Source: Stylophora pistillata
Lineage: Eukaryota
Length of the DNA stretch: 64,000 bases
Assembly (NCBI RefSeq): GCF_002571385.2
Contig: NW_019218013.1
Coordinates: 215,422 to 279,421 of the forward strand
Direction of reading: 5' to 3'
Shown: piece by piece, positions 7,701 through 61,325 of the stretch
Numbering within the stretch: the first letter of the stretch is position 1
Layout of the letters: each line of letters opens with the position of its first letter
Notes under the pieces: model-generated
The model's database searches: none
What the model saw: only the letters and a program-made list of their open reading frames with translations
What the model was told of the DNA's origin: nothing
Translations under genes and position numbers: made by a program

Positions 7701-10700
7701 CTATTAACTGTATCTTTTGGAAAACATTTAGTCAATTCACAATTATTTTCTTTATCAAGTAAACTTTTTTTTTCCTCACATGTTTTCAAACTGTTTTGTG
7801 TAGAGTACCTTACCAAAGTAACTAACAATGTTAACACACGTTGAGATGCACTCTCACAACGTACATACACGTACCTCATATTTACAACTTCTATTTACAA
7901 ACAAACAGATGGATCACTTTAAAAGATTCCTTATACAGAACAACTAAAATGTGAACCTGTCGTGACAGGTCATTCACACCTTTTTCAGCATGTGGAACTA
8001 TTCCTTCTAAAGGAATGGCTGCTACGGGATCAGGCATTATACTATGATCACTTGATTTGAAACTCATGCTGTAATGAGAAACCTGTAAAAGAACGGATGA
8101 TCTATTCATTAGACGTTGCACACCCGAGATCTAATAAGCCATTCTCTATACCGTCTAACATACATTTCTCATAAATTTAGTTCTGAGGGTTTGTTACTAA
8201 TTAATTCAAAGGTTAATTCTGAGGAAAGATCCATCTAAGGAATGCCTCTACAAACTCAATTTATTTTTTTTGGTAGAAAAAAAAAGAAAAGTCTGCAAAT
8301 TGCTTGCCTCCAGCTAGTGAGTTCCAGAATTTAAGAGGATCTCAGCTATTTTATAATATCAGGCAAACATTACTTAAGATGATATTAATAAAGGGGGTAA
8401 GTTTCTACAGAAACTGTGGTGCTGCATCGGCAGGGGTAAGGAGGTAATTTGGTTTTATCAACTAAGTTGAAATTGTAAATTAACCACCATAAAGAGTTAA
8501 AAAGCTGATGTTTTGAGCGTTAGCCCTATAACAGGGCAAAAAATGAGATTGCCTTCTTGTTTATCCAATTCTAAAACACTGAACTAGCAGAACTTTACAA
8601 AAAAAACTGAAGAACAGAATCAAATATTCAAGCCCTCTGCTTCTAAAGATTTTATTTCATACAACCCTTAAAGTAATTTTCCAACATATTTAGGTATTAT
8701 ATTTCTAGCCACAAATTTCCTGCAAGGTATGCTCTCATGAACACTTCCAACATTTTAATATTTTTAGAGTGAATTAGCTTGTAAAGATTCAAGAGTTTTC
8801 CCTTCTTTAGAAGTTCATGATTCTCAGCCATGGTTTTTATGCACAAAGCCCTGACACAATATCATTAGAGGACCTTAAGTTATTGCAACACTGCCTGAAG
8901 CCTTTTCTGCTTGATTTTCATATCTACGTGTACACTTGTTTGAAAATCAAATAATTCAAAGTGAAATTGCCCAATCGAGTTCCGTTTATTTTGGCTCTTG
9001 TGCAGAATCCTACTAAATGGAAGGCGCTGAATCCGTCCGTGGTTTCACGATTGATTAATTTCTGAAGTTATCTTGCTTTGGCAAAAAATAAATATCAAAG
9101 TTGTGTAACTTACACCACAAACATTTAATAGTTTCTTGAAAGTCAAATATTCAACTCGTAGCAAAATAGGAAATGCCATTATGGATAAAATGATAATAAT
9201 GGACGCCAACTTTATTGCAAACCAAGTGTTTAGACTGAATGACTACTGGTTATTGTTCTGTTTTCCTCCCCTTGGCAATGCGCCTTCATCAAATCTAAAA
9301 TCGTTTCCATACCGTGCCTTGACAAGCTTTTGGCTTATCCAACTGATATTGTTTGCAGCTTCCCCTGCAATCTTGAGTTATCCACGATAAAAACAAGCTT
9401 TTACGTGCCTTTCAGAAGCCACAACAGGAAATGCACGAGCCCAACGGAACTATACTACAATCCAATTCTTAAGGCTCGCAGTTAAAAAAAATATATAGGA
9501 AATGATATTGTGGCAAGATCACGTTTGAATGATGTAACGGGGCAGATAATTAGAAAACAACTGGAAAACGGCCATTTCTACAGACTTGCCCCCGTTAAAT
9601 CTTCTCTCAAAGAAATAAACAAAACCACATGCATTCCTTGAGGTTATGGTCAATTCTAAGCTCCTAATATTGGCGTAAAAAAAAACCAACAGCGTAATCC
9701 CCCCGAGTCATATTCTAGATTGCCTTTTCGACAGAAACTTTCCAGACATTGAAATACATCAAATTTTTTAAGAAATGCTCCAAATGGCTTGTCTGCTCGC
9801 TTACAATTTGAAAAACATCACATTACAATTCCATTCATTCAAGACAGAGAACGATCAGTCCGGCTTAAATAAACAACGATAAATACTTTATGGTTCACGC
9901 AAAAACCGTCAACACGAAACCCTGGGTTCGCCGATATCGCTAATACCTTTCATTTAATCCCTTCAAAGCTCTGAACAGGAAGATCCAAAGCGTCAAGCAA
10001 TCAAATCGAAGAAAGAATCGCCGATTTTCGATCGTTCACAATCATTGCTAAGCGCACAATAGAGTAAGAAAGAATGCATTCCGGCCATGCAAAACAAAGT
10101 ACCCCATCTCCGTGTTCTTAATATTGGCGTTGTAAGCTGATTTCTATTCATCAGAATGACTCTGGAAGAACGAAAATACTCTCTGGAACACAATCACTCG
10201 ACTTCTACGACGAAAATAGTTCGCGGAACGTCACATGAATGAAGTAAGATGACAAAAAATGCACTACAAAGTTAACATTGCGTAAAGTGGAGTATTGGTG
10301 CTACTGGGATGCTAAGAGAAGCCCTTTCATTCAAATGATCAGAAACGCACGGAAAGCTTTGCTTCATCCTCAATTCGAGACGTAAACTAAAATAAACGAA
10401 TACTGTGTCTAAACACTGAAATGAAGTCGACAAATCATTCACAGAAACAGGCTGATGGACTTTGTTCAACTCGTGTGAGAATCACTCTCGCTAGCACGTC
10501 GTACTTACCTGCGGATTTGAAAACCAGCTTAGCTGAATCGTTGAAACGGACGAATCTATCGGTGACATAAAACGATAAAATGCACCAGTATCCTGCACCA
10601 TGGTAGTTGGCTCTCCCTTGTGAATGAGATACAATTTTCCTTGGAAGTTCATTTCTGAAATATAGAACAAGCCATCGCGATTGATTCTTCTCCCTCGATC

Positions 10701-18763: not shown

Positions 18764-18987
18764 TACCAGATTTACCGTTTGCTCACCCAGAGTGATATAT
18801 TGCTGATTATGTACATCAATAATTGATAAATAAACGTTGAATTACTTTACCTGTGGTGCATAGTCGTTCTTTTGCAAAAGGACGACAATGCACCACAATG
18901 CACGACAATGCAACGTTTATTTATCAATGATTTATGTACATAATCAGCAATATATCACTCTAGGTGAGGCAAACGGTAAATCTGGTA
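18764..18987. mobile_element. Foldback MITE with about 75-bp TIRs
   Basis: TACCAGATTTACCGTTTG..AAACGTTG / CAACGTTT..CAAACGGTAAATCTGGTA. Confidence 0.8.
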
Positions 18988-24192: not shown

Positions 24193-27100
24193 TTTTTTAA
24201 TGCATGTTCCTTTTTGATCAATATCTTGAATTCAGAGTGTTTTCTTTACTCATGGTATCAAATTTACTTACTTTTTCATGGCTACAACAAAATTTGTTTG
24301 AAACTAAACTGTGAATTTTTGAAATAAGGCGAATTATTTTCTAGTATTGGCTAAAAGATAAAGGTTGGTACTTCAAACCACGTGCCGTGCTGCGAAAGAT
24401 CAAAGGTCGTTTCTGGGAATTACAAGCGTTTCACATTGAATTGCATGACAAAGGACAAAGCTTGTGATCAGCGGACAAAGACTTGAACCGAAGGGATTAA
24501 TGAACATTAGTAAACAGCATCAGAATAAATGTTATGGGGTAAACTAATGAGCTACCGAGTAAATTCAGCTTTCATTCTCAAGCCATTTGCTCCTTAGTTC
24601 CGCCATGGTCGTCTACAATTTGTAAATAAATCTAAATTCTGCTGTGGGTAATTCAATTTAACTTTCCAACAACTCAAGCACTTGTTATTTTTTAGGAACG
24701 CAATGACGATATGTACCAAACAAATTAACCCTGGAAGCTTCATTAAAATACCAACTTAAAGCAATTTTACTGTAATGAAACAGAAGGATTATCTATTGTA
24801 ACGGTCTTCAGTGTTTCCAGAACTGTCCCTTGGTGATAACTTTATGTTGTATTCGTCAACCTTTGTACCAACAGTCAATATGGTTTTGCGCGTAACACTA
24901 TTCAGCATAACTTAATTTCCTCAAGTCTTGCTAGGAAAAAATTCTGACGAAACGTTATTCAACCTTTTCCATCCCTATTTGAAAATGCCAAAACAATTGG
25001 AAACGTCCTTTGTGTAGTTTTTAGTTCGTGTTTGAAAACTTCTCAATTTGACGAACTTAGTTACATATATTGATTCCATGTTTATCCGAGTTACAACTCG
25101 AAAAAACAATAAACAATAGCATACATGTGAATACGTGAGCTCTCGCAGGTTACTTCTTCCCAGATTTCTGGTGAAAGGATCGGGTTTCAACAAAATCATT
25201 CGGAAATCGTTTTATCCCTTCTAGGGGCCCGACCATTTAACTTTTGAGGGGGGGTGGGTGATTTTGAAAAATAATTTCCTGCAAGCGCTTGTTGGAAGAA
25301 AAAAATTGCATGCAGCCCAAATGTAACAGAAAAAATGTACCATAAAGTCGAAAAAAATACCCTGCACAACAGATTGCTAGAAAAAAAATTTCTTGATGAC
25401 CAGAAATCTCCCACCCCCCCTTCAAAAGTTAAATGGTCGGCCGCTTAGACGGTCGTGTTCCCTCTGCCGTTCATTAACGTCAATTTTAGCAACGATATTT
25501 TTACAGATTGAAGCATGAGAAACGTGCTAGTTTACCAAGTGTATGTTTTGTATTCACCTCACTAATTATAAGCCACAAATGAATATCATTCCATCAAGAA
25601 CTTACTTTTGATGGAATCTTTTTGTTTTCATTCTTTTTTGGCCTCATCCATTATTATTGTCCTTGATTCAGTCTTTCACTGGCCTCAATGGAAGAAACAG
25701 TTTCTTGAAAAACGTGTTCTTAACACTGCCAATCATCGTTCGAGTATAAATTTCTTGCGAACTGGACATGAAGCATGATTTTTAGCCAGGCTTGAAAGAG
25801 CATAGAACACCGTGGGTCTCTCAACCCTTGTCAGGGGCCTTTGTCCTACCAAGCAATACGAGATTGGCTCTTTTATTCCGACCTTTGTATCAGCCTTTGA
25901 AATAATTATTTGTTGTGAAATTGTAGAAGACACCTACTGGTCAATTTGATGGTTGAAATATAGTGCAGGTAGGAACTCTATTTTGTGGGACCTCTATTCT
26001 GTGGGACACCCTCGGGATGAGTAAAAGTGTTTCGAGGTGTCTTTTGATTTAGGGTAATAGATTCATAGGTTTTGAGGGCATTTTTTCACTTTTTACGGGT
26101 TGGACAAATTTTGCGTCCCCTTCTTGCTAGTTCCAGGCATTCAGTTGGTAAAACGAACCGCGAGTTGCTTGACCTGACCCAAACCTCCCTCGCTTTTGCT
26201 CTGCTGCTCTATGCGCCGTTTATTATTTCACTGCGTTTTACTGGCCTGGAACTGGCTACTTCCTCTTTGATAAAGTGTCTTCTGATAATGAGCGTTTCTC
26301 CCATAGAGATATTCTCTTGTTGTCTGAAAACGTTGAGTTAAGATAAAGTGTTGCAATTTTTTTCCGTTTTGACGTTAAATTTGAACTTATTTTTTTTATA
26401 GATGCAAGCTCTGTTCTACCACAACCAAAGCAAGACACAGGCATTTCATGGTAACCTGGACACAAAGTCGGTACGTAAAGCTATCACCCTTCACCCGGTA
26501 AAACAGCCGTCGTACATGTACCGTTTGCAAGTACATTTCATGTCCATGCGCATTCAAGAACTTCAGCACCAAGCAATTAAGCTGCAAAGAGTCCTCAAGA
26601 ACATGGATCTGTTGCTGAACTCCACGATCAGTTCACTATCAACTGAAGAAAAAACTAGCCTCCAAGGCGTGAGAGATTTTCATCACCAACTTAGTTCAAG
26701 ATACCATGAACCTTGGGACATGTTCACGGCGCAAAAGTTCTACTCCGAAGTCACGCTTCAGCCGCCTGAGACGGGCATGCGCGATCCGTGGAAAGACGGG
26801 CTTAATCACGTGCTTGGGCAGACAATGGGATTAATCAATGAGGAAGCAAAGCGAGTTCTTCACCGCAGCCTTGAATTTAAAAAACTTAATCCCGGATACA
26901 TACGAGTACATCCGCTATACGGCGCACAGTACCTCATGGATATGCTCATGAAGTATCACCGGCACATTGGACACAACAGGAGGCGCATGACGGTTCACGT
27001 GCGTCACCACGCCTTTTTACAATTACCCTTTGGCAACATGGTCTACCGAGCCGAGTCCTTTGGAAAAGAGGTCCCCTCGGTACATTTTATCCTCCCCCTA

Positions 27101-27847: not shown

Positions 27848-27924
27848 AGTTACGTAAAAAGTTACGTAAAAGTAGAAAGCAATTTTTTCAATCGAGTGTC
27901 GAGACTATGCTGGAATTAGGGCTG

Positions 27925-28138
27925 ATAGTTTCTAAAGAAACTGTTTGGAGCTGCGTCGGTGGGGGTAACGAAATAATTTGGATATATCAACAAAGTTGAA
28001 ATGGTAAACTGGCCACCGTAACGATTACAAAAGCTAACATTCCGAGCGTTAGCCCTTCGTCGAAGGGCTGACGCTCGAAACGTCAGCTTTTGTAATCGTT
28101 ACGGTGGCCAATTTACCATTTCAACTTTGTTAATATAT
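27925..28138. mobile_element. Penelope-like pLTR palindrome just downstream of the CHSY1 stop
   Basis: Near-perfect inverted arms of about 78 bp (27982-28138) centred at about 28060; same family as 33575. Confidence 0.7.
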
Positions 28139-28433
28139 GCTGGAATTAGATTGGTTTCGCTGTGCTTCGCTCCGTGATTCGCGGGGGGAGCTTGCACCTC
28201 CTTTTCGACTAATCGAATAATATGAAACATACGTTTCTTCCTGCGCTGCAGGCCATGTGCTTATTTTTTAGTTCGAGGTCTCATTCGCTCCATGGGACAT
28301 TTCTTTTGTTCAAATTGGCTGTTAATATTATCATTAACATCTCTGAATCATTACTGGTGTCTGTATCATTGTCATTATTATTATTATTATTACTATTGTT
28401 TATTCATTTCTTTCTTCTGTGTGTGTGTGTGTG

Positions 28434-29311: not shown

Positions 29312-31694
29312 AGGGCAGGGAAGGCAGAAAATGTTCGTACACGTGATCAGTCTGTAAACTATGCATGACAAAGCAAAAACTCAATGAGAGGAGATAATAT
29401 GTTGTGGCCGTGTCAAAATTCGTTTGTAAGAAAGTGTTCAATAGGCTTTAAATATCTAACAGGAAGCCATTTGCGGCCAGTTCAATTCGAAAAGGTGAAC
29501 GCTCTTGCTGTAATCACCAAGGTTGCACAGGGGGATCATAGCGAGAAATAGAGCTGAAAATCTTTCGAATCACATGGGTAATTATATTCATGATAATTAT
29601 TGAAGAAATTCGTACTCTCCTTGGCCAGGTTATATCTGAAGTTGCTAAGAATCGATCACCGACTCCGTTTGTGGTTCAGTGGATTTTACGTCACATACCG
29701 GACATTGACAAGTGGAGATCGTTTATACCTGATACACAACACACACCCAATCACGCAGCCGTCAACGAGTTGCTGAATCAGTTCTTTAGCAATTCAGCCT
29801 TCCCTGCAAGGTACAGTCAAACAATCTGTAACCACTAAAGCGCTTTTTAGTTGAGTGTCTTGAAAATCAAAACAAATGCCAGAAAAACAAAACAAACGTA
29901 AGTATTACAATGAACCAATAAAAAATCCACCAAAACTCTGCAAGCTACATAAAGTACAGGTGAAGAAGTTGAGATTGGTTCAGTTTGCATTTGCATGGTA
30001 ACAAAAGAATATGGTTTATAATCTCTTGATGGTAGAGTGTATCGTGCGACTTTTAGACTAATTGCAACATGCAGCGAAGTAAAACAATTGCAGTCGTGGA
30101 TTACCTTTGACGCTCGTTTGAAAATTGCGCCATTCTTCTCAAACATATGCCGCTTAGGCTTCTGATCATCGTAATGAGAATGTTTTCGTCGTGCAGTTAC
30201 CAGCGAGACCATACTCTGAGTACAGCTGTGGGTGGGGATGTCATTAGAGTATTTCAGGAAATTCCCGAGAAAAGATTTGCCTAGGAAGGCGTCTCCAGAT
30301 TTCTCGTAGTGGAAAAAGATGGCGTCGAGGATAGTAAAATAGTTATTGTAACTGTAGCAATATCAATTTGCCCAGGTTTAGAGAGATCCTTTTTTTTAGA
30401 TACTTTAGCACTCATGTATGCGTGTACCTCTGAGCATCTGAAAGTCTGACAAGTAATTTTTTTTCTCTTTTGATTTCATTTGGTAACAGTGAAAACCACG
30501 AAAAGATCTGTCCCTCAATGTTCTCTTCAGTCTGGCACTGGGTTATTTAAGATGTATACTACCATTCGATTCAGAGTATCTACAAATCTCCTTAACATTT
30601 ATCAATTGCATAAATACTCATGCGCAGCGTTATGAATTGCCTTGAACTTAATAATAAGTACTTTGAAACTAATGCGATATTCAATAGGTAACCGATGTAG
30701 AGAGCGCAACACAGGCGTTATGTGGTCATATCAAGAGATGTTACGAATACTACGAGCAGTTGAATTCTGAACACGTTGTAAATAAAACAGGTGGAAGCTA
30801 TGCGCTTTCGTACAAGATTTGAATTAGTTACGATATAACTTGGTACTTGACTCTGCTTACATATCCATAATTTTTCACGTATACTTTTCCCAGTCAAGCT
30901 AATTGGGATGAACATTGTACGAATGTATCCAGTGCCTTGCATCACGTGTTAAACGCGTCGCAGTGGGAATCAAAAGCAGTACCTTCCGATCATCTACAGG
31001 TAATCTGATTAACATGAAAGTTCTCCCCATAGTATCCATACATTATCCAGCAAACAGGTAATGAGAATAATCAAATTTATCAGGTAGAAGTTGTTATCCT
31101 GATCTAACACCAAATTCTCATAACTGATTTAAAAGAAATGTGAAGCAGCAAGAAGGGAGAATTAACAATTAGATCGCGGGAGTTAAAGGGTTAAATTCCA
31201 AACTGCAAAGAGAAGTTAACTGTAAACAGACAGTGGAAGCTAATATGATAATATGTTAATTTGCTCATGCAGAGTGTATATATATTGCGTTGCGCCTCCT
31301 TACTAGTCCTTAGTGACTGCTAGGTTGTGTAACTGAAAGAAATTAGGCATGTTTGATTTTGGAACCAAGCAAAACTATGAAAGGAAAAAGTGGATCGGCA
31401 TATGGGAATTAAGATAGAAGTTATTGTAAACCTCTTTTAAGGGTTGAAAGACCAAGACTAAAGTTAAGTCAATCACAACAAAGCGAAATATTAAGAACTT
31501 AATAGAACATGAATTTGCTCGAAGCGCGGGGAAACGGGCGAGTAAGGTACGGTTTTAGTTTTCCATCTGATCAGTCGAGAGGCTGGGCCGAGTTTCTAGA
31601 CCAATCAGAGAACACAGTGGAGCAAATCCAGTGCAATGTTGGATTGTCTTTCATCACGACGGCAATGACATTTATTTTTCACGGGCATTGTTTA

Positions 31695-31968
31695 AAGAAA
31701 TAATTTGGATTTATCAACAAAGTTGAAATGGTAAATTGGCCAGGAACGCTTTTCATTCCAGGGATCAACGAACGCTTTTCATTCCACTAATTTTTTCTTT
31801 TTTTTTCTCGTTGCCATGTCCCACCAAAACGTAGCTCCATTTTCTGCCTTTAAAAGCACCCACAACCCACAATTCCTCTATTCGCTCCGTCGAAGGGCTG
31901 ACGCTCGAAACGTCAGCTTTTGTAATCGTTACGGTGGCCAATTTACCATTTCAACTTTGTTAATATAT
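31695..31968 (+). mobile_element. 5'-truncated Penelope-like retroelement 3' end with an inverted pLTR fragment
   Basis: 31761-31790 encodes GINERFSFH*, which resembles the C-terminus of cnidarian PLE GIY-YIG ORFs. It is followed by a degenerate hammerhead (CCGTCGAAGGGCTGACGCTCGAAACGTCAGC) and the pLTR tail; an inverted tail fragment lies at 31700-31742. Confidence 0.7.
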
Positions 31969-32183
31969 GCTGGAATTAGATTGGTTTCGCTGTGCTTCGC
32001 TCCGTGATTCGCGGGGGGAGCTTGCACCTCCTTTTCGACTAATCGAATAATATGAAACATACGTTTCTTCCTGCGCTGCAGGCCATGTGCTTATTTTTTA
32101 GTTCGAGGTCTCATTCGCTCCATGGGACATTTCTTTTGTTCAAATTGGCTGTTAATATTATCATTAACATCTCTGAATCATTA

Positions 32184-32318
32184 NNNNNNNNNNNNNNNNN
32201 NNNNNNNNNNNNNNNNNNNNNNNNNNNNNNNNNNNNNNNNNNNNNNNNNNNNNNNNNNNNNNNNNNNNNNNNNNNNNNNNNNNNNNNNNNNNNNNNNNNN
32301 NNNNNNNNNNNNNNNNNA
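32184..32318. other. Assembly gap (N run)
   Basis: Run of N. Confidence 0.99.
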
Positions 32319-33574
32319 CTTGGGGTTCAAAATCGGTGTGGCTCGGGGACCAAAATCGGGTTAGTTTGGGGACCATCAGCGGTTATGGCATAAGAACCGA
32401 AATCGTTTCTGGCCCTTAAGTCATTTAATAGTGCTGAACTTCTTCAAGGCAGGTCAAATTGATACTATACACAGGTTCCTTTCTTAATAATGGGAAATTT
32501 CCCGAATGTATTGCTCGGCACTTTAATTTAGCTCACTATCATCAAGTCTATTTAAAACCATATTTGTGAAGCAGTTTATTCCTTTGTTAAAGGGGGGGTG
32601 GGGGGGGATTTTGAGACAATAACGAAACTTCGCTCTTTTACCAGAAGTTTTGAGTAATTTTTTAGAATTTAATTATTAAACGCGAAGTGCGCTAGAGAAT
32701 GGCATGGCAATCGTGATTGGGAAATTTCCTCTATAGCCTTTCTGTTGATCGTGTCGTTCGAAGTTGCCAAATATTTTGTCGTACTTGATATCTAGGATGT
32801 GTTTTTAGCTATTTATAACACTAGATATTAAAGTCATAATAGATGTTTACTCGAGAGTCCTGTAATTGAATTTTCCAACCAATATTTGCTGTTCTTGCAG
32901 TAAGCGCAAAAGGGTGGAAACAAGTAACTCTTTTCAGGAGTGTTAGACAAAATTATCCCTCCCCGTGTTTTCCAGTTCACTCTTTACCACCTCGTTAACA
33001 GCATGGTATCTCATGGTTAACAGCCCTATCTGTCTGAAGTCAAACCAGTCATACGGGCGTGGTCTAGAAGTTGAACTCCGGACTGGTAGTCAGAATAGCA
33101 CTCCATCCTAGGACCCCTCAATTACGATCCGACACGGTCAACGCTTGATCCACTAATTAAGGCTACTGGTTGCTGAAGACATCTAACTCAATAGCCCCAA
33201 TAGCACAATTGTGTACCCTGGTAAAGATTCGTGACCCTGAAAACCTTTTCCTGCCCAGCGAAATATACTGGGTTGGGAGTATACTAGAAAAAGTGGGTTA
33301 CCGCTCGGTACGCCCTGACAAGATGAACCTACGAAAATCGCTGGTGTTTTGTACTATTAGTTATCTCTGAAAAAGGAAAGTTGCGATCATAGTAGAAGAT
33401 TTTTTTTTTTTTTACTGAAAAAGACAATGTATAGAAAATAAATAATAAAAAGAAAAACTCAAGGGAAGAGTCTAATTGTCTATTTTGTGTGTGTCAAATT
33501 TACTTTTTGGGATTTGAAACTTAGATTTTCACTCTACAAAAAAAAAAGCCTTGCACTTACCAATGATATAAGTC

Positions 33575-33726
33575 CCCGTTAAGAGTTAAAAAGCTGACGT
33601 TTCGAGCGTCAGCTCTTCGTCAGAGCGAAACGAAGGGCTGACACTCGAAACGTTAGCTTTTTAACTCTTTACGGTGGCCAATTTACAATTTCAAATTAGG
33701 TAACCAAATTACCTTGTTACCCCCAT

Positions 33727-33758
<32 letters not shown>

Positions 33759-33770
33759 TTCACCCTTTAC
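33575..33770. mobile_element. Penelope-like element inverted pLTR relic (palindromic, hammerhead-bearing)
   Basis: Inverted arms AAGAGTTAAAAAGCTGACGTTTCGAG.. / ..CTCGAAACGTTAGCTTTTTAACTCTT, followed by the family tail also seen at 8390, 27925, 31700, 48375 and 55835. Confidence 0.7.
33593..33626 (-). ncRNA. Minimal type I hammerhead ribozyme in a Penelope-like pLTR
   Basis: Minus strand reads GCU CUGACGA A GAGC-UGAC-GCUC GAAA CGUC AGC: CUGANGA and GAAA core, 4-bp helix II, palindromic ACGU in place of helix III, GUC cleavage triplet, helix I GCU/AGC. Confidence 0.72.
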
Positions 33771-34029
33771 CATAATATAGTTTGCTGAAATAAACTATCA
33801 TGCTGTTTTTCTCTCGTTATTCACCCTATTGACGCTAACGTTTCCCTTTGAACTTTCAACACTTTGAAGTATCATCCCGTTCCATGCATCAAGTGGCTAA
33901 TAACTTGTGTTGATCCATCAAACATCTCGTAACTGTTCACCCTTGAAGTATCGCACCGTTCATTCGTTTTAAAACACGTGATCTTCTTCATCCAAAAATT
34001 TTTTCGTTAAAAAGTTCCGATCTGAAAGA

Positions 34030-34450
34030 TTTAAAAATGCTTTTCATTCTAACGTGAGGGTCAGGCTGTGGAATGAGTTAACAGACTTCTTAAGAGACCC
34101 ACCAAGGAAATAGTTTCGGACAAAACTCAATGATATTTCGTTTGGTATCATCTGACAAGTCTGACAAACGAAGACAATAACTTAGATACTGAAACAATTA
34201 TGACAAAAGTAGAATATTGTAAATAGTTATGTGATATCCGAGCTTTTACTTAATAATTTCATTTTCGACCTATTTCTTGATAGTAAAATTTGTTAAATTG
34301 TAAGTACTTCCCAACACTGCATATAAATCAAATTTAGTTTAGGCAGCTTAGCCGAGATAGTTTACCGTAGTTACTAACCCGCCTTGGACTAGCTATGGCT
34401 GTTTGTGGGTCAGAAAATGTGGACTTGATTACATATTACATATTACATAG
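34030..34450 (+). mobile_element. 5'-truncated CR1/L2-clade LINE 3' end
   Basis: Decayed ORF2 C-terminus-like peptide (..VRLWNEL..LRD...FRTKL..EDNNLDTETIM..), followed by a 3' UTR ending in (TTACATA)n repeats at about 34428-34449. Confidence 0.55.
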
Positions 34451-34897
34451 TTATAGGAAAATCGAATATAAGGAAATGTGTTGAGACAAAGGCAGCTTTT
34501 CTTAACGGGTGTAATGTAACCTAGCGGCGTGCGTTTCCCTTGTTCATTTTCTCTATCATGATCATCCTTCCCTCTTTGTGTTTTTCTGTTAATCGGTAAA
34601 ATTGTTTCACGAAGTTCGTGCGTGAAAATTCACACGTAACACTTCTTTTTCTGGCACCTGCTGTAGTGATTCCTCAAATATTTTAATTCTGCTGCACTGT
34701 TTAATATTATTATTTATGAAAAACACAAAAACAAAAACATCATAAAAAAAAACAAGCTACGTATATAACGCGTATCTAATTTGAGTTAAATTGCGTGACC
34801 AAAGAAATAAGATTCACCGCCCAATCAGAGTATCAGACTCGAAGCTCAGAAGTTGAGACTTTGGTTTCCCTTATTAGAACTCGCTTGAAAATCTACC

Positions 34898-45765: not shown

Positions 45766-48700
45766 TTAGCTTCCTTTGAAATATTTGCTATAAAACTTTT
45801 GGAACTGTCTTGTTTTGGAGAATCCCACACAAATTAAAACCAAGATATAGACGACCATAATTGAAGCCAATGGATATCGGCATATGAGCCAGTTATGAGC
45901 TTGTGTCCTGGATAAGGAGACAAAAGAAAGTTGACATAAATCAAAATTAGGATAGAAATTTTAATGTGTAAATACATAATAGTTGTTTCCTTAAAGTATG
46001 TTCAGAGATATGAAGACCAGTTTGTCACACAACAGTGGTTATGTTAATCCTTAAATCCCAGTCAAAGTGAACAAAAAGTAATTTCTCCTCTCAAATGTAA
46101 TATATTATCCTGTTAAAAAGTGATGAGAAGCAACAAAATGATCAGCTCAACCTTCCAGGTATTATCCTGACATGGCACCAGCTTCTCTCAACATATTTTC
46201 AAGGAAATGAGAGGCAACAAGATGGGAGAATTGCTCTTTAGATCTTGGAGCTAACCAGTTTACTGGTAGTTCAGACAGACCCCAGAAAGAAGGATACAGC
46301 AGTGAAAGCAACACCAGACAACTTAGTGGAAAATATCAAACAAAATTTTCCCAAACAATGAACATCACAGTTAGAGCAATTTTCAATTGGGTGTAGAAGG
46401 TAATCTGGAATTGCATTAGGGTAGTTTGCTTTACTTCACATTGGGATTGGTCTAGAAAACTCAGGGCTCGACACTAATGGTAGCCCACTAGCCATAGACT
46501 AGTAGAAATTCAGTTTTGGCTGGTGGTTTTATATTTCCACTAGCCATTTTGGCTAGTAAACAGACTGAAATTGTTGTAACATCTAAAAGCATCTAAGATG
46601 TCACTAGCCACTTGGCTAGTAAGTTGAAAAGTTAGTGTCCAGCCCTGAAACTTGTGCCACTCTCTCAACCAATCAGATGCAAAACTAACCCCCCTCACAA
46701 CTTGGTGGCCCTCCTTTTCCCATGCTATAGGCTGTTTGGTCGTTTTTACTTTGAGTTCTCACTGGTTCTTAAATTTTTTCATCTCTTTTAATTGGCTCTT
46801 GTGATTACTTTTGTTTCAGGTTTTATGACACTCAATTCTAAATCGTTCAAGAAGGTCATAGACTATTGTTTGAAGTGTCCTTTCCTGTTTGATTCTCAGC
46901 TTTCCAAGTAACGAGAATTTGCAAATGAGAATATATTTAAGTATCACCTACTTAAAAGAATTAATATTCAGATTTCTGGTTGGAGTAAAAGGATAAATGT
47001 TGTCATAACTGCCACTAATGATTATAACACTACATTTGCTATACCTAGTGGGTGCTTTCTTCTCAGCATACACCAGTACATATTTCACCCTAACAACGTG
47101 GTTGTTTGTAACCACATAATATCTCTCAGGAACATCCCCTCCCTCACTGTTTCTTGCTCTGGCCCTTGAACGATGAAGTCTGTTGTCATTTGTTTTAGAT
47201 TTGATAGTGCACTTCACATCTGGATGGTCCAGGATCTCACAGACAGCCACACAACTTAATTTTTCTCCTATCGTGCTGTTCTTCCACCCTGAACCAAAAC
47301 TACTGTAATTCATACAAACAGTTAGATCACTTGACAGGTAGGTTCCTTCTCCGAAAAATGATGTCTAAAGAAAATGAAGAAAGGTGGTTTAATTGACCAC
47401 TTAATTAAGATCATCGAATAAATGAATGAACTTTATTTATCGTCGATAACGTGGGGAGTGGTCACCCAATCTCCCGAGCCAAGGGCTCATGTATAAAATG
47501 CTCGACTAAAGGAAATACAAATTAAATAATAGATTAATATCATATATGAGATATAAAAGTTCATTAAACTATATACAATAAAGATTGATATAAAAGTTTG
47601 AAAAAAAAAAAAAGAAAAAAAGCTACAAGATACAATGCAGTATATTGATCCATTGGTCTATTCACTGATTGGGTAAAGTCTGCACTGAAGCCTGTTAGCC
47701 CACCCAGCAGGAGTTTATCCAGGTTTCCATGCAGCATAAAGCAACTAGGAGTATTATTTCACCCCTCTGGATGAGATGCTAGTCTTAACAAAATGGTAAA
47801 CAAAATGGTAAACCCCAGCGTACACTGGTAAGTTATGGATGCATGCAGGAGGTTGCTAACCACGAAAGAAGTGTAAGAGTCACACAAGGTGATAGCCGAG
47901 AGTGACTCTAGCTTCTTGAGTGCTTAGCAAACCTCCCTAGTGCATCCATAACTCAATAGTGAACACTTAGGCATTTACCATTTGTTTTATAACATAACAT
48001 TGATACATTGTAGCCAAAGACTTTTCTCTTATTTAACTATGTTATGTGACCAGAAAAAACAAGTGCATGCGGAAAACTAGTCTTTGCATTTGCTCACATC
48101 AGAAGTGTACACCCATGGGCAAATGGTGGACACTGAAAATTGACCAATCAGAGCATGCTTTTACTTTGGTTATGTTATAACATCACTTGGTTACCCCCCT
48201 GCATTTTATAAGGCTTCACTTACAATTCACTGGTACCCAGTGAGGCACTGTGAGAGTAGACCCCCGCTGTATTTTTCCCTTGCTCAATTATTTCTCCCCG
48301 GATCTCCAAGGATGATATTCCTTTGGCCAGCTATTCAGTCAATTAGTTAGACAGTCTGTCAGTCATAATGAATAAAGGGGGTAAGTTTCTAAAGAAACTC
48401 TGGTGCTGCGTTGGTGGGTGTAACAAGGTAATTTGGTAATATCAACTAAGTTGAAATTGTAAATTGGCCACTGTAAAGAGTTAAAAAGCTACATTTGTTT
48501 AGCTATTAAGTTGGTCAGTCACACAATGTACCAGTCAGTCAGACAGTCAGTCAGCCACTCAGCCAGGCAGACAATCAGTCAGCCAACCAGCCAGCCACTT
48601 GATCAGTCAGTCAATCAGTCAGTAAAGCAGTCAGTCAGTCAACCAGCCAGCCAGACAGTCAGTCACTCAGCCATCCAGACAGTCAGTCAGCCAACCAAAC

Positions 48701-49039
48701 AGCCTCTTGATCAGTCAGTCAATCAGTCAGTAAGGCTGTCAGCCGGTCAACCAGTCAGCCAGCCAGTTAGTCAGCCACTCAGCCAGCTAGCCAGTCAGTT
48801 AGTCAGCCAGCCAGCCAGTCATTTGATCAGTCACTTGATCAGTCAGTCAATCAGTTAGCCAGTAAGGCAGTCAGCCAGTAAGCCAGCCAGTAAGCCAGCC
48901 AGCCAGCCTGTCACTCAGCCAACCAGCCACTCAGCCAACCAGCTAGCCAGCCAGACAGCCAGCCAGCCAACCAGCCAGCCTGCCACTCAGCCAACCAGCC
49001 ACTCAGCCAACCAACTAGCCAGCCAGACAGCCAGCCAGA

Positions 49040-49074
<35 letters not shown>

Positions 49075-50270
49075 GCAGCTGGTAAGTCAGTCAGCCAGCC
49101 AGCTTCTTGGTCAGTCAGTCAGTCAATTAGTCAGTCATTCAAAATCTAGCAGAGATCACCTGGCAACTCAACTAAACAAACAGCTAACAAGATTCATAAC
49201 AATAATTTCGCTCTAAAGGCATTAAACTTTTTCAGGAAAATGATTACATGTACTCACTTTGTTAAGATGTGCATGTAATCCATTATTCAAAATAGAATGA
49301 AAATTGTCCACTCTACTACCATGGTAAGCATACCAAACATCACGAGTCTGTGACATATCATCAAACATTGCACTGAGAGTATTTGTCTCACTGTAAACAA
49401 CTTCAAATATGAAGTCAGGTGTGGTGGAACAGTAACTTGCTTGACCAGTTTTTCGCTCAATCTCTAAGAACTGTTGGGATTAATAATAGCCAAAAACAAT
49501 TTGTCGAGGAAATTGAAAAAAAATACTAACATATTACGTAACAGTGTTCACCTTTTCAGGCAGGAAAGCAGTACTACCTCTTGTTGATGCCTTAAGTATA
49601 TGGAGAACAGTTTTACAATTTACAAAAAGACAGAGGCGTCCATAATCAGGCAAATTCATTTTCAAAAGCCTACCACAGATTTCTCAACAGATCTCAGTGA
49701 AAATGTTCTATCCAGTGCCCAGTCCAAGATGTCCCAAGTTTCTTGAGCATAAACCTTACTGGTTTCCGTCAATAGCTTGTCAAATGAAGGAACAATACTG
49801 CAAACTTGAACCTGTGAAAACCAAATTTAGTAGTGCTGCCCATAATGAATTACCACAATTAACCAATGGGAGGCAACCTTTAGAAGAGGTCTCTGAGATA
49901 AATTTTTTCAAAGAGGCCCACAATTTTTTTATAAATCCATCAGATGAAGTCGTCAAAGGTGCTGAAAAAAATAGTGGAAGTAGGGAGAGGGAGGGCGCGT
50001 GGGGGGGAGGGGGGGTTTGGAGTGTGTAGCTTTATAATAAGAGTACAGAACTCTGATTTTCCATTGACCGACACTCACCAGCCTTTGAACATTCTTATCA
50101 CCATCACCCTCCACATACGCAGAAGGAAAGGGTCTCAATATGCTGTCATGTCTGTAACTTTCCAGAGCTACAATAAACAAACTCCACTGTAGATCAGCCG
50201 ATGTGAGGTCAGATTCAAGTCTTTGTAGCACACGTTCCTTTGCCTCTTCACGTTCCATTTTAGCCATCAT
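45766..50270 (-). CDS. PARP16: Mono-ADP-ribosyltransferase PARP16 (ER tail-anchored), about 334 aa, 5 exons
   Basis: Exons 50270-50079, 49811-49674, 49470-49258, 47364-47045, 45907-45766. Motifs ADLQWSLF..ALESYR.DS.LRPFP, YHGSRVDNFHSILNNGL, FGEGTYLSSDL, VPERYYVV (H-Y-Y triad); C-terminal TM. Confidence 0.95.
46462..46647. mobile_element. Non-autonomous hAT-like element with 5-bp TSD (hAT5-like)
   Basis: TIRs CAGGGCTCGACACTAA / TTAGTGTCCAGCCCTG (15/16 match); AAACT is duplicated on both sides. Confidence 0.72.
47831..47953. repeat. Hairpin/inverted repeat element nested in a SINE relic
   Basis: AGTTATGGATGCA..AGAGTCAC / GTGACTCT..TGCATCCATAACT. Confidence 0.6.
48372..48500. mobile_element. 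Truncated copy of the same pLTR family (PARP16 intron 3)
   Basis: Same sequence as 8388-8510, ending before the hammerhead. Confidence 0.6.
48512..49137. repeat. Degenerate (CAGT)/(CAGC) tetranucleotide array in PARP16 intron 3
   Basis: About 620 bp of CAGT/CAGC/CAAC units with some higher-order repetition. Confidence 0.92.
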
Positions 50271-50553: not shown

Positions 50554-52042
50554 ATGTCAGTAAAGCAAATATATTACTCAGAGAAATATTACGACGACGT
50601 ATTCGAGTACAGGTAAGGATGTTACCAACTCGCTGCTTTATCTCCTCATTCTGTGGCTTGTAAGCTGGTTTTAAAGTGAAAATGGACACAGCTTACACAT
50701 CTTTGCAAATTTTACTTTTTACCTGCATGCTCCTATTTCAAACGTATTGGTTTTCTCTCTAAACCTCCATGCTGCAATTTTGTAGCTGAAGAGGCACCAA
50801 ATAATACTCTCTTTTTACTGTAAACTATCCAGTCTTCGTTTAATTTTTAGCAATAAATAACTGCCGTTTCAAGTCTTGTGTTGCTAAGAGTGGATCAGTT
50901 CAGGTGAAGGTTCGTTAAAAACATGGCGACGTTTCCTTTTTCACGTTGCCTCGCAAGAATGTTAGGTTTTTCGTTAAGCCCGACTTGTGTTGATTATTCA
51001 GTGCTTACTTTTCTAGACATGTCCTGTTACCGAAGGAAATAGCTAAGCTTGTCCCGAAACGGCACCTTATGTCAGAAACTGAATGGCGAAGTCTTGGTGT
51101 TCAACAATCTCAGGGTTGGGAACATTACATGAAACATGACCCAGGTAAGTTTGAAGTTAAGTTTCAAAACGTGCATGTACTCCACTGCCTTTCTTGGTGG
51201 TGGCTCATAATTGATTTCAGTGCCTCTATGAACACGAAACAACCCACAGTCTGGTAGGTCGACATTCACTTGCAAATTGTGACGTTCATCCTCGCTGAAT
51301 TTTTTTAAAACTTTGAAAATTAGCTAGGAGAGCTCTTTTCGTGATTAGTGACTGCCAATAGTATGCTCTCTCCTCTTCTTTTTCTGTTACAGATTCCATG
51401 CAATAACACCCACTTTACAGAGGCAAACATTAAAATCTTTGGCTGTATTTTCAACGAGATTTATGAATACGTGAATATTCCTCCAAAATGTAGCTTTAAA
51501 TTACGAAAAAAAAAAAAAAGAAACTGCCTTTTTATGGTCGTGGGTATGTGCTTGCTTCTCAGTAATACAAAACTCTGTTAATATGAACAATATTTCACAC
51601 CATCAGTTTACCAATTTTTTTTGTGTTGAATGATGTACTGTTTGGGTCCGTTACCCTCTTGGTGTGTGGTTCTTTTCCATATTTAGTTCTTAATTGTTAA
51701 ATCTATAGAAGAGACTTACTTCATGTGATCAAGTAAGTATTGAAAAAACCTTTACTTTACTGGAGTTGAAAGTTTGATCACAATTTTTTAATTAAATTCT
51801 TCAGACTTCCTTTTTTTTCTATTGCTTAAATTGCAGTATATCTGCAAGGATTATTTGTTTGTTCAATTAACAAGTTTGTGGGATCCATTGAAGTGAGTTA
51901 TTAGTGTTGTAAGGGTCTTTTGAAGCTTTAAAAATCAGGGGAGCTGGGTTCATTCAAAGTTCTACTTATGATTGTCTGTGTGCTTTCAGAGCCTCACATT
52001 TTGTTATTCAGAAGAGAAAGGACTGACCTATGCAAGAATTAA
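50554..52042 (+). CDS. CKS1: Cyclin-dependent kinases regulatory subunit (CKS1/Suc1 family), copy A, 79 aa
   Basis: Exons 50554-50612, 51017-51144, 51990-52042. Protein [79 protein letters not shown]. Confidence 0.95.
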
Positions 52043-52725: not shown

Positions 52726-52894
52726 TATACTGAATGCAAATAATTTTTATGGTGTCCAATTTGAATTACCATTGTTCTGGACTGACTAGCCTCCCATACT
52801 TGTAATAATCCTTTTGTGTTTCCACGTGAAGACGAGGCTGGTCAGTCCAGAACAATGGCAATTCAAATTGAACGCCATATTTGCATTCAGTGTA
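52726..52894. mobile_element. TA-flanked hairpin MITE between the CKS paralogues
   Basis: Arms ACTGAATGCAAATA..TGGTGTCCAATTTGAATTACCATTGTTCTGGACTGACTAGCCTC / GAGGCTGGTCAGTCCAGAACAATGGCAATTCAAATTGAACGCCATATTTGCATTCAGT. Confidence 0.65.
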
Positions 52895-53953: not shown

Positions 53954-54884
53954 ATGTCTGTAAAAGATATTTATTACTCTCCAAGATACGCCGACGACGC
54001 AGGTGAATACGAATTTAGGTAAGACTTGAAAATCTGGCTTAGTTACTGGTAATGTTTACACAGTTGCTTTGCTGTGATTTCGAAATGCTAAGTTTCAGCT
54101 GCACCGTCAAATTTACAAATAGAGTCAGCTTCGTCCTAACAACATGCTCTTTTTTATATGTACCTTCAAGACATGTTATCTTACCAAAGGACATCGCCAA
54201 GAAAGTTCCTCAAAGGCTTATGTCAGAGCCAGAATGGCGAAATTTGGGGGTTCAACAATCGCAGGGATGGGTACATTACTTGAGACACGGACCAGGTAAA
54301 AAGCTTCAATAAAGTTTGTAACGGTTTTAGGAATATGGAAAAAAAAAAGGAATGCTTATCGCCTGTAACTTGTCTTTGATTATGTTTCAAATCCACTTGT
54401 TTTATGGACAGTCGTAACTAGTACATGCGTGGAATGAATTAGGAATCTCTCCGCCATCGTTATCACTTTAGTATGTTCTTGTTGAACTTTTTGTTTTTTG
54501 CAAGCACAAGCAGAATACAAAATTAGGCCTTAGGGTAATCAAAAAATAATATAAGGGAACAGTCAACAACATGTTTAAACTCCAAAAAATTCCACAATAT
54601 GTTAGTTACATACATAAGCTTTATTTATCCTCGGATTTCAATCTTGCTTACAAGCAAGTATCTCCGATCCTAAGTATTAATTTTAAAAGTTACAGCAAGA
54701 GCAAGGCTAAAAAGATAAAAAAAATAATTCATAATATAATAATCATTAATATAATAATATAATGTAACATTAACAGAAACCGTGCACTAGCAGTTGAAAG
54801 GAATACGTGAAAAATTCTAACCCATATTCTTTGCTTTTCTGCACAGAACCACATATACTCTTATTCAGGAAGAAAGTGAAGTAA
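53954..54884 (+). CDS. CKS family paralogue, copy B, 75 aa
   Basis: Exons 53954-54018, 54171-54295, 54847-54884. Protein [75 protein letters not shown]; same intron positions and phases as copy A. Confidence 0.93.
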
Positions 54885-55719: not shown

Positions 55720-58700
55720 TTATGAGTTCTGATGACAGTACACCAATACTTCAGATCCAATGCGACCCCCTGGGAAATGGGTGTGGAAAAATCTTGCACA
55801 CTGCAACAACGGAAAAAAATGCATTTCATTCAAAATAATTTGAATATATCAACAAAGTTGAAATGGTAAATTGGCCACTATTACGATTATAAAAGCTGAC
55901 GTTTCGAGCGTTAGCCCTTCGTCGGAGTGAATCAATGAATCGCTCCGACAAAGGGCTAATGCTCGAAATGTCAGCTTTTATAATCGTAACAGTGGCATTT
56001 CATTCAGGATTGACTGCTTCAAATGAGTCTTTCACTTCAAGGGTGTACTTTTTGCAAAAAAAAAAAAAAAGGGCCACAAAGATTTAAAGATCATGCACAA
56101 CATATGACATTATGTTTCATCATAACAAGAAATGTCAACTTAACAAAAAGAAACAATACAGTTTTCAGAATGCTGATTAAGCAAGATAAACTTTATAAAT
56201 GTTGATTACTATTACATTTACTTAATTTTTTTTTCAGAAAGCTTTTTAACTATTTATTCTAATCAAGGACTCTTGTTGAGGGCTATGTGATGTGGAATAG
56301 GAAGGGATATCTATGAAATACTACATAGCTGGCAAATAAGTATGATGCAAGTATCAGAAATTTAAGATTACATATAGTTTGGTTGTCAAACGAGGTCACC
56401 TCTTTGTAATGAAAATGCTCCAACCACTTTGATATACTCTACAAAGAAAAAAAAAACTTAAAATTAGCAAAGACACAAAAACCTATAACAATAAAAAGGG
56501 GGAGGGTTCTAAAGAGCAGTAGTACTGAGGTTGGTGGTGACTTACTGTCCAGTAAAAAAGAAGAAAACCTAAATTGTTAGCAGACGATTGGGAATTTTTA
56601 CAAATCAAACCTTGAACCAGGGTTTGTGAAGGAAAAGATGATGAAACCATTTTTACTCTTCCCAAACCAGATGAATTCTTTTGCACTCAACAACAAATTT
56701 AAAGTGCACCTAAACCCAAAATTTTTTTTTCGCTTGACAAAATAAGCTTATTTTTTGGAGTATTTCTGTGCAAAAATTTTTTAATTTGCTCAAATNGATT
56801 TGAAATCACAAGTATGATTTCAGACCAAAATTGCACGACATGAGGTTCAATTACCACTTTATTACATCCATTTTGAAATTGCCCAAATACAGGACTTGGT
56901 CAATTCAAATATTTTATTGATGCAGTATGGAGCTGGTTTTTTAATAAAAAGTGGAACTGGAAATGCTTTTACATCTTATTTTGTATGCAAAACAAAAAGA
57001 CTGACGTCACGTGTCAAAAACTCAGTCAAGCATAAAATGATGCAATTTAGAGCAAAAATCGTAAGATTTGTGAATAAATCGTACCAATTAGAGCCAATCA
57101 GATAACAGGGACCACCAGTGATTTCAAAATGGATGTAATAAAGGGAGAAGTTACATGTTAATCACCTCTGGGAGTTAAACGGTTAAATTGTAGCACATGA
57201 TGATCATTGCTTTACTTGATACACAGTCACCTTCACAATGGTTCAGGATTGCAACAATACAACCCCAGCTATGTGAAAGGTTATTACTGAACTAACAAAT
57301 AAGGATTCATTTTGCCCTAGAAGAAAAATGAACTAACTTGTAAAAGCACATTGAACAGGACAAGGTGTGATGGAAGGTGGTGAGGTTCACCCTGGTGACC
57401 TGAGGGGATTCTGTGGTCCCTGAATTGTTCTGATAGCCATGATGTGGGATGTCTGTAAAACTGATCAGCTTCATCAATATATCCTGGCTCTGCACTTGGG
57501 GGACATTCTAAAAACCTCATGCTTATGTTTCTGTGCACAAAACTATCAAACAAAACCTGTTATTCAATGAGCTGTTAAGTTTATATTCCACTACAACCTA
57601 AGATAAAGTTAGTGAAGTAAACTTCTGCCTTAGGTAGGTTCAATCAACATCTTACAAGAGTTATGTTCCCTCTACATCCTGGAGCTCAGAAACTTTTACA
57701 CAAGCTTGAAGACTCACCTTCATGGGACCTTTCCAACTTCATCAAATTCCTTTGATAAGGTTGGTCATAAAAAACTTTTTAAAAAAATAATGTACCTAGT
57801 TTTGAATGGTGCTAACTTTTTTAAAAAGAATGCCACTAACTCATAACTACTGTCATACGTCAAATATAATTCTTGTGCAATGCTTTTGTTTAATGGAGAA
57901 GATTGTATTGATCACAAGCAGGTAAATGAGAAAAATTATGAAGTTTGGAACCAAATGGTCCCTATCTTGCTTGTAAGCCAACAAAATGTTTTGAACTCCC
58001 ATTTTTTGTCATGTCTATTGACCTAAAGCTTGGAATAAGGTAGTTAAGACACTAAAGATAAGGACAGAATCTACCACTACATGCACAAAAAAAAAAGAGT
58101 TGAAAACAGTTTCAAAGGAGCAACCATCAAAATCTGCAGAAAATACCTATAAAATGGCGTTGAATGGCATGGCATCAGAAATAATACAGACATGTCATTA
58201 GTGTTTCTCAGTTTGGAGCTTTCGCTTTGAATGTACTCCATCACATCAATTGTTCCCTTTTGGTGAACAGTGCTGGTGTATATGGCCAATGGAATACTTG
58301 TTAGTACTAAAAATAGTACCATCATCTTTGCTTTCCAGCCAGATTTCACCTTCCTTGAAAAACCATCTTCAAATGCATGATCCTTTTTCTCACATTGATA
58401 TCCAGAAAGGAAGCTTAGAAAGAACCCACAGTAGCACATGGCCAAAGGGACCACAGGAAAAATGAACCTAAATTCCTTGTGTCCCAAGAAACTGTAAGTA
58501 AAGTGCAAACCATAGTTTATGTTCTTATCTGGTATCAGATAATACAATTGATCCTGCTGACTAATCAGTCAAATGTGAGAGTTAAATCATGATGGTTTAC
58601 TTTTCACTCAGTACAGTTGATAGCAAACACTCCCAATATTTTGTCAAGTTTTCATGGGAAAGACTTACAAAAAGGAATGATTCAAAGCTCTCTTTCTATT

Positions 58701-60575: not shown

Positions 60576-60985
60576 TAATGGTAATTGAACTGAGTGGAGT
60601 GCAATTTGGGCTGAAACCATACACGTGATTTCAAAATCAAATGAGTGCGCAGTGCGAGTTCAATTTGAAATCCTGATTTCAGACCAAAATTACAAGACAT
60701 GAGGTTCAATTACCACTTTATTACATCCATTTTGAAATTGCCCAAATACAGGACTTGGTCAATTCAAATATTTTAATGATGCAGTACTGAGCCAGTTTTT
60801 GAAGAAAAAGCAGAACCAGAAAGGCTTTTACATCTTATTTTGTATGCAAAGCAGAAAGACTTTGACGTCATGTGTCAAAAACTCAGTCAAGCGTAAAATG
60901 ATGCGATTTAGAGCAAAAATTGCACCAAATAGAGCCAATCAGATTGCAGGGACCACCAGGGATTTCAAAATGGATGTAATAAAGG
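60576..60985 (+). repeat. Interspersed composite MITE, copy 2 (downstream of PIGBOS1)
   Basis: Direct-orientation copy of 56798-57145, plus a left element with TGGTAATTGAAC / GTTCAATTACCA ends. Confidence 0.75.
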
Positions 60986-61120
60986 GGGAAATATATGGGG
61001 TGAACTCTCGATGAAATAAAGTGATGTGATTTATATTCTGCTGTAAATGACAAGTGGCAAAATGGGTCATAACTTCATTAACTCAATTTTCAATTTGATT
61101 GCTTTCATTTTAAGGGAGGT

Positions 61121-61325
61121 TAGCCTGCAGAGCAGGCATTCTAGTAAAGTTTGGGTGAAAATTAGACTGCGTGAAAATGGAGCGAGGCGAAAAATTAGGA
61201 GGTGGGAGGAGGGCTAAATTCTTCTCTCCTCTCCCCCTCCTGCCACCTCATTTTTTGCCTCGCTCCATTTTTCACGTGGTCTAATTTTCTCCCAAACTTT
61301 ACTAGAACGCCTGCTCTTCAGGCTA
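61121..61325. mobile_element. Foldback element with 9-bp TSD (Mutator-like MITE)
   Basis: TAGCCTG...CAGGCTA, almost fully self-complementary; flanked by AAGGGAGGT at 61112-61120 and 61326-61334. Confidence 0.78.

Follow-up and report, generated by a model that had tools for sequence, protein, structure and literature searches.

A complete minimal type I hammerhead motif lies on the minus strand of 33593-33626 in the window analysed here, which comprises the whole stretch of 64,000 nucleotides from Stylophora pistillata. Very probably, it belongs to the shorter arm of an insertion that is 5'-truncated, arranged head to head and derived from a Neptune-type Penelope-like element (PLE) with the minimal hammerhead in its pLTR. 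The motif at this locus is predicted to be locked in a hairpin and is likely unable to cleave. The motif is one more copy of a published class with thousands of members in coral genomes and is a poor candidate for activity. More useful than the motif is the record of Penelope insertion, which consists of the end statistics of the family and of a captured piece of this locus.

Read on the minus strand, the motif starts with the 5' strand of helix I (GCU, 33626-33624), which is followed by the core CUGACGA (33623-33617) and an extra A between positions 9 and 10.1 (33616). Helix II is formed by GAGC (33615-33612) and GCUC (33607-33604) with a UGAC loop. GAAA (33603-33600), CGUC (33599-33596) and the 3' strand of helix I (AGC, 33595-33593) complete the motif, and the predicted cut lies between 33596 and 33595. 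The core elements CUGANGA, GAAA and UH are all present, helix I closes the 5' and 3' ends, the G10.1-C11.1 pair is made by G33615 and C33604, and an ACGU palindrome (15.2-16.2) stands in for helix III. A descriptor demanding CUGANGA, a paired helix II, GAAA, a palindrome before UH and a helix I of at least 3 bp identified this as the sole site in the 64 kb and detected none in 100 dinucleotide shuffles of the window. The original prediction of a hammerhead with all core nucleotides on this strand, of the minimal type I form with a palindrome instead of helix III, was therefore confirmed by the sequence and the descriptor scan. Its statement that the strand folds in this way held in part, as the pairing can be drawn but the predicted fold is a rival hairpin. 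The hammerhead scan that it had proposed gave a similarly divided result: the descriptor finds the site, whereas the Rfam covariance models returned no hammerhead family among 10 matches at E<=1 for the hammerhead copy. These Rfam matches were sub-threshold miRNA hairpins (E 0.0004-0.02; 44.5 bits compared to a gathering score of 80). Together with a hairpin z-score of about -13, they would suit a miRNA precursor or MITE, in which the 100-base hairpin would match a hammerhead by chance. We regard this as extremely improbable, since the matches stay far under the gathering scores and the motif occurred in 0 of 100 shuffles. Moreover, the arms of the hairpin are Penelope pLTR sequence linked to an RT ORF, and this linkage refutes the miRNA or MITE reading.

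The motif shares several traits with the minimal hammerheads of PLEs as described in passages of Cervera and de la Pena 2014 (PMC4209133), namely the type I topology, the palindromic ACGU in place of helix III, the extra base between 9 and 10.1, the G10.1-C11.1 pair and the location in the pLTR. Passages of the same paper and of PMC7229834 also describe such motifs as mostly solitary or in facing pairs on opposite strands, with thousands per coral genome; for A. millepora, PMC7229834 gives more than 6000 type I motifs, most of them minimal. The coral motif is shorter than that of S. mansoni, with 4 instead of 7-8 bp in helix II and 3 instead of 4-5 bp in helix I (PMC4209133, same passages). 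Two further differences from the PLE motifs are the C at position 4 in the youngest subfamily here and the rival hairpin private to the 33593-33626 copy.

The short arm of the insertion (33575..33629, minus strand) begins 6 bases upstream of core nucleotide C3, which falls within the 5' hot spot of the pLTR family. The long arm (33630..33769, plus strand) begins at hammerhead position +3 and ends at the tail end of the family; it lacks CUG and has GUU at the cut site. Between 33576-33620 and 33630-33674, the arms are inverted and 91% complementary. An inverted, truncated partner facing the hammerhead had been predicted and is indeed present, extending to 33769. The likely halves of a target-site duplication, judged by eye, lie at 33557..33570 (left) and 33767..33779 (right); they differ by one gap and one mismatch and their longest exact match is only 6 bases, the duplication being preserved as a decayed match only. 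Upstream of the element, two AATAAA signals (33437..33449, at 33437 and 33444) are located at the terminus of a plus-strand transcript, which does not reach the element. This transcript end is likely the 3' UTR of the chondroitin synthase gene that ends at 27847, assuming that the two are contiguous. The hammerhead copy is located about 130 bases beyond the poly(A) signal.

A first look at the genome with the long arm gave 2868 candidates, of which 40 were scored. Copies with more upstream sequence run into the end of an ORF bearing a GIY-YIG domain. The repeat is linked to an RT/GIY-YIG ORF and can therefore be assigned to the pLTR of a Penelope element, as had been predicted; lack of such a link would have spoken against the assignment. 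The clearest case, locus L077, is 5'-truncated and has an unbroken frame of 594 amino acids with RT and GIY-YIG domains that reads directly into the pLTR. Its RVT_1 match scores 31.7 bits (cut-off 29.6) and its GIY-YIG match 20.9 bits, below the cut-off of 22.6, while GIY-YIG was at or above the cut-off in all four other ORF ends. In the translations, a C-x4-C-x2-C pattern was seen by eye between the two domains, and a linker of this type has been described for the Neptune and Nematis clades. The domain content points to an endonuclease-bearing PLE of the Neptune type, although the linker would also fit the Nematis clade. The long arm is 84-88% identical to the ORF-linked pLTRs of L004, L027, L285 and L290 (84-87% for L285 and L290) and 78-79% identical to a younger subfamily. 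At other loci, the repeat continues past the tail into a leader of about 75 bases and an ATG-led ORF. Partial tandems (ORF end, pLTR, 5' UTR, ATG) occur in L285 and L290, and such tandems place the pLTR at both ORF ends in L285, L290, L276 and L247. The family layout is thus an ORF end, a 3' UTR of about 100 bases, the hammerhead (0 to +27, with C3 as zero), an end site at about +90 and a tail end at about +150, with about 75 bases from there to the ATG in continuing elements. A full-length element with an unbroken ORF in one piece was not found, the long copies being truncated or broken by gaps.

Passages of bioRxiv 10.1101/2021.04.23.441226 and PMC3846280 describe the same build for endonuclease-bearing PLEs of the Neptune and Nematis clades: RT, a Zn-finger-like linker and, at the C terminus, a GIY-YIG domain in one frame, partial tandems, an adjacent inverted 5'-truncated copy, a tail on one end, target duplications and host capture between pLTRs. 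The adjacent inverted 5'-truncated copy, the one-ended tail and the target duplication are all found in the present family, whose tail comprises about 60 bases compared to 30-40 in those elements. Between +155 and +230 from C3, L276 contains a branch-point-like TACTAAC, a pyrimidine tract and a CAG at +209 before the ATG (also in L247:1000-1080). A strong splice donor was not found near the 5' end of the element, and none of the 20 loci covering the 5' UTR (20 of the 40 matches) was a spliced copy. If a donor lay upstream of +90, both RT end sites would be intronic and only unspliced RNA could be copied from there.

Folding predictions suggest that the hammerhead copy at this locus is probably inactive. 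Compared to the common sequence, it carries a G-to-A substitution in helix II and an A-to-G substitution in loop 2. With both changes, helix II can still be drawn, but a competing hairpin of 12 bp is completed, and the cut site lies within it. In the 46-base motif, the hammerhead fold lies 8.4 kcal/mol above the minimum and helix II has a probability of 0.003; the corresponding values for three other copies are 4.2-7.0 kcal/mol and 0.29-0.99. A minus-strand transcript would traverse the antisense long arm first, and the whole insertion is predicted to form a long hairpin (z = -13.7) in which the penalty for the hammerhead fold amounts to 41.5 kcal/mol. All these energies are predictions and take no account of assistance by proteins or of folding during transcription. 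A recurrence of changes that perfect the palindrome was also considered for the family and rejected, as the A-to-G change in the loop was found in 3 of 68 arms and CpG changes are the prevailing type.

Minimal motifs depend on a second motif in the same sense, and passages of PMC4209133 report no cleavage for single motifs and low cleavage for dimers. The partner at 33630..33769 is antisense and without CUG, and there is therefore no second hammerhead in cis; no other motif in the 64 kb passes the descriptor. For a dimer, the 4-bp palindrome duplex was the only component scored (-3.1 kcal/mol). Transcription of the locus was followed in about 2% of each of two raw, randomly primed runs, whose library direction was fixed by a plus-strand ORF at 34889 that gives first mates on the minus strand. 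The plus-strand transcript extends from 32400 to about 33450, where it terminates close to the AATAAA signals. Transcription of the hammerhead strand would enter from the side of 33874-34811, and here RNA depth in the two runs was zero on both strands. Most reads placed on the locus fit in part only, as expected from other copies, and none of the reads sampled from these runs supported minus-strand transcription into the copy. The suggestion that the copy may still be active is thus unsupported, given the rival hairpin, the antisense partner and the outcome of the proposed stranded RNA-seq check, in which two shallowly sampled runs gave no reads of the hammerhead strand into the copy.

It is accordingly very unlikely that the 33593-33626 copy functions as a self-cleaving ribozyme and cleaves RNA of the host or of intergenic origin. 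All core bases are present, both helices can be drawn and a partner in trans could come from any of thousands of related copies; against this stand the rival hairpin, which is favoured even in isolation, the far larger penalty for the hammerhead fold in context, the missing same-sense neighbour, the lack of flanking reads on the hammerhead strand in the runs sampled and the poor cleavage reported for the class in PMC4209133. On a young pLTR, read depth was nearly equal on both strands, and the cut site was marked neither by a dip in depth nor by a pile of read ends (three raw runs of one study; a weak test due to random priming). Going by the literature, if the family hammerhead works at all, it would do so as a dimer in same-sense tandem transcripts or with the help of an element protein, and not in the stubs.

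The original prediction listed six related copies in 64 kb (8388, 27925, 31695, 33575, 48372 and 55835). All six places contain family sequence, but the 31695 copy was probably mis-scaffolded, which leaves five. None of the five other listed copies passes the descriptor, even with U4C allowed. Two are solo pLTR stubs on the minus strand without a core, one beginning inside the hammerhead at +7 (8384..8527) and one at about +25 (48362..48492), the latter directly adjoining a degenerate tetranucleotide array (48467-49140). Two are head-to-head pLTR pairs: the pair at 27910..28139 has no intact core and is flanked by a 14-base target duplication (27906 and 28136), and at 55831..55996 neither arm passes the descriptor. 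The 31695 copy consists of an inverted arm (31693-31742) and an ORF-end remnant from 31745, within a stretch between N gaps (29354..32183, plus strand). The notion that the repeat disperses self-cleaving motifs through genes finds little backing here, as the window copies in or near genes are without a core and the hammerhead copy lies past the poly(A) signal. The pair at 27910-28139 forms a 78-bp inverted pair that starts 63 bases beyond the stop of the chondroitin synthase ORF; it would give a long double-stranded stem in the 3' UTR.

Intact motifs are found elsewhere in the genome. A sample of 1.4 Mb contained 18 sites passing the descriptor, 14 of the pLTR family, three of a second family and one singleton. 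The second, unrelated minimal hammerhead family has a longer palindrome (L121:4941, L187:5573 and L239:5674). Position 4 is C in 13 of the 14 pLTR family motifs and U in one, and the C-for-U change in the core is characteristic of the youngest subfamily (L060, L087 and 13 sites in L106-L245). According to passages of PMC3088659, U4C lowers activity in vitro and still allows viroid infectivity. In addition, three loci (L282:463-2151 on contig C459, L283 on C67 and L284 on C276) contain same-sense tandem arrays of pLTR and leader from which the ATG is deleted. The L282 array consists of 5.4 copies of a 315-base unit, each unit with a hammerhead, four of them having a helix II mismatch. By their arrangement, these arrays appear retrozyme-like and would be better candidates for dimer cleavage than the 33575-33769 locus. 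Passages on non-LTR retrozymes (PMC7229834, bioRxiv 10.64898/2026.07.22.740005) likewise describe type I hammerheads in short non-coding repeats related to pLTRs; in contrast to these, the 33575-33769 locus is inverted and single, and a same-sense tandem was found only at L282-L284.

To derive end statistics, we searched seven 200-kb blocks chosen blind to their content (the 1.4 Mb above, including 87,528 N) using a profile to which 42 of the first 60 loci contributed, with C3 set to zero. This revealed 96 arms in 70 insertions, or about 53 per Mb, which by rough extrapolation from large contigs corresponds to about 20,000 stubs in the 398-Mb genome. Arm starts cluster just upstream of the hammerhead: 51 of the 96 lie at -12..+5, the next fullest 18-base bin holds 8 arms, and only 3 of 96 start at the cut site (+25..+31). 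As the arms of one pair are not independent, starts were also counted by insertion (38 of 70 in the hot spot) and among the solos alone (22 of 45). A subset of 39 hits has at least 90% identity to a young copy whose upstream sequence is known; of these, 21 begin in the hot spot, one begins at the cut site and 13 begin far upstream. The last group needs read-through transcripts and counts against the insertion model given below. The upstream flanks of 26 solo hot-spot arms are unrelated, except for one neighbouring pair. An artefact of the profile was considered as a source of the hot spot and rejected on the basis of this young-copy subset and the unrelated flanks. At the other side, 36 of the 96 arms end at the internal site (about +90) and 42 at the tail (about +150). 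One 3' end of each type is found in 17 of 24 pairs, and the arms start at most 15 bases apart in 19 of 24. With 69 of the 70 insertions examined, a flanking shared word of at least 8 bases was detected for 13 of the 25 insertions with several arms and for 10 of the 44 solo copies, compared to 0.7% in a control on slightly shorter flanks. The flanking duplications are mostly 12-15 bases long.

In RNA reads, the borders at many loci (-7/-6, +89/90 and +147-149) are the same as the DNA borders, and the fold-back joints (-7/+2, -6/+2 and -7/+4) are as in the 33575-33769 copy. The family reads are strand-symmetric in three raw runs of one study. The borders in RNA stem from genomic copies that are transcribed passively, on both strands alike, and thus corroborate the hot spot in the DNA but do not mark a start site. 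A frequent loose end behind the tail in the RNA reads, considered as a trace of the element body, was rejected since it maps to one expressed host locus. There, at L246 (G000:C93:491594), a broken head-to-head stub yields many RNA reads that run past the tail.

The stubs retain the part upstream of the cut site, and their templates were therefore likely uncut RNA. We lean towards the view that the RNA of the element begins near -7. The site near -7 resembles an initiator. An internal pLTR promoter is described for Penelope in passages of PMC2377424. Insertion may then proceed as follows. The element endonuclease would make a staggered cut, in line with the 12-15-base duplications, and RT would start inside the element RNA at one of two fixed sites. 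It would copy through the uncut hammerhead to the likely RNA start, about 7 bases upstream of the core, and often fold back to copy its own cDNA, thereby producing the inverted arm. Fold-back at local palindromes is described in passages of PMC3846280. Those passages take head-to-head palindromes as pointing to an antisense template, whereas the model proposed here uses none.

Alternatively, the 5' hot spot may not reflect an RNA start. RT could drop off or fold back at the self-complementary stems of the hammerhead, or an antisense template could end there. The region is quasi-palindromic, pair arms start close together anywhere (the 19 of 24 mentioned above) and often at short palindromes, and PMC3846280, in the passages cited, favours self-priming on an antisense template. 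We nevertheless regard this explanation as rather unlikely, as the same start is shared by the 22 of 45 solo copies, which have no fold-back, the starts lie beyond the structure, after its passage by RT, and L272, a long copy continuing into the ORF, also starts at the hot spot. Another possible source of the short copies is hammerhead-cut, circularised RNA, as in non-LTR retrozymes. The same-sense tandem arrays of pLTR and 5' UTR (the 315-base unit in 5.4 copies, with 99% matches) would be in line with this. However, few stubs have an end at the cut site (3 of 96), their ends show no circular permutation, the 33575-33769 locus is inverted and not tandem, and the RNA reads show no pile-up of ends at the cut site, which makes a circular origin very improbable.

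A similar behaviour is known from the Anolis Poseidon element PAc, for which in vitro work located two internal sites of RT initiation and identified uncut RNA as the principal substrate (passages of PMC11167929, which also describe protein-assisted hammerhead cleavage). PAc shares with the present family two fixed internal 3' ends that define the tail, insertions from uncut RNA and RNA-seq data without ends at the cut site. In PAc, however, the hammerhead contains the ORF start and RT initiates within the ORF, whereas both end sites here lie upstream of the ATG and before the acceptor-like AG at +209. The avoidance of the cut site by the stub ends thus offers genomic support for the in vitro finding that uncut RNA is copied. 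For endonuclease-bearing PLEs, the passages cited do not mention a sharp 5' hot spot at the hammerhead's foot, and searches of literature listings and passages returned no published 5' hot spot or template-switch capture.

Such a capture may be preserved for the present locus. Window positions 32330-33570 have exactly two matches in the genome, the locus itself and a place on contig C41, where L096 (G000:C41:674700-676810) is a young Penelope insertion of 2077 bases with a 13-base target duplication. In order, it comprises an inverted arm, the young subfamily's ORF end and 3' UTR, a window-derived segment of about 1.78 kb and a young tail. The donor of the segment (28055-28433, a gap, and 32318-33686, plus strand) includes the hammerhead copy. 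On the left, the switch (28055-28060) occurs where the old pair at 27910..28139 has its apex; on the right, it occurs in a shared 17-base stretch (33670-33686). Both switch points fall within older stubs. The segment carries one target-duplication half per old stub while the other halves are in the window, which identifies the window as the donor. The orientation of the segment is as expected if a plus-strand read-through transcript, which carries the hammerhead in antisense, had served as template. Compared to captures between pLTRs known for host DNA in a rotifer (PMC3846280, section 9) and in other endonuclease-bearing PLEs, as far as the passages describe them, this case has both donor and recipient visible and its switch points in older stubs.

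We tentatively propose that the stubs act as landing pads for RT, which would jump by homology from the element RNA to a host transcript with a same-sense stub and back at the next one. In this proposal, stubs span the stretch from RNA start to RT start and are copied uncut, and the hammerhead plays no part in most insertions. If true, C41 would be a caught example, in which 1.78 kb of a host 3' region with an antisense hammerhead were moved, and the pair of donor and recipient, with its switch points resolved to the base, suggests how old stubs could enable elements to duplicate host sequence. Donor and captured part are about one base apart, while the outer parts differ by 2-5% from the nearest copies compared, a pattern that speaks against one RT event. 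The insertion may instead be an older one that later underwent gene conversion, or the shared part may be a collapsed assembly. The stretch 29354..32183 (2830 bases between N gaps) is 100% identical to the C41 flank, and this stretch, including the 31695 copy, probably belongs with the C41 insertion and was mis-scaffolded into the chondroitin synthase 3' region.

The window contains further features apart from the pLTR family. Two exon-like copies (51066-51148 and 54217-54299) are 82% identical and end in GTAA; they resemble exons of a CKS-type cell-cycle subunit. Short MITE-like elements with inverted repeats, unrelated to the pLTR family, are located at 18782-18968, 25217-25452, 52748-52879 and 61120-61326. 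Other dispersed repeats were observed at 1889-2075, 31006-31191, 56815-57187 and 60674-60990, and the one at 31006 has many relatives in the genome.
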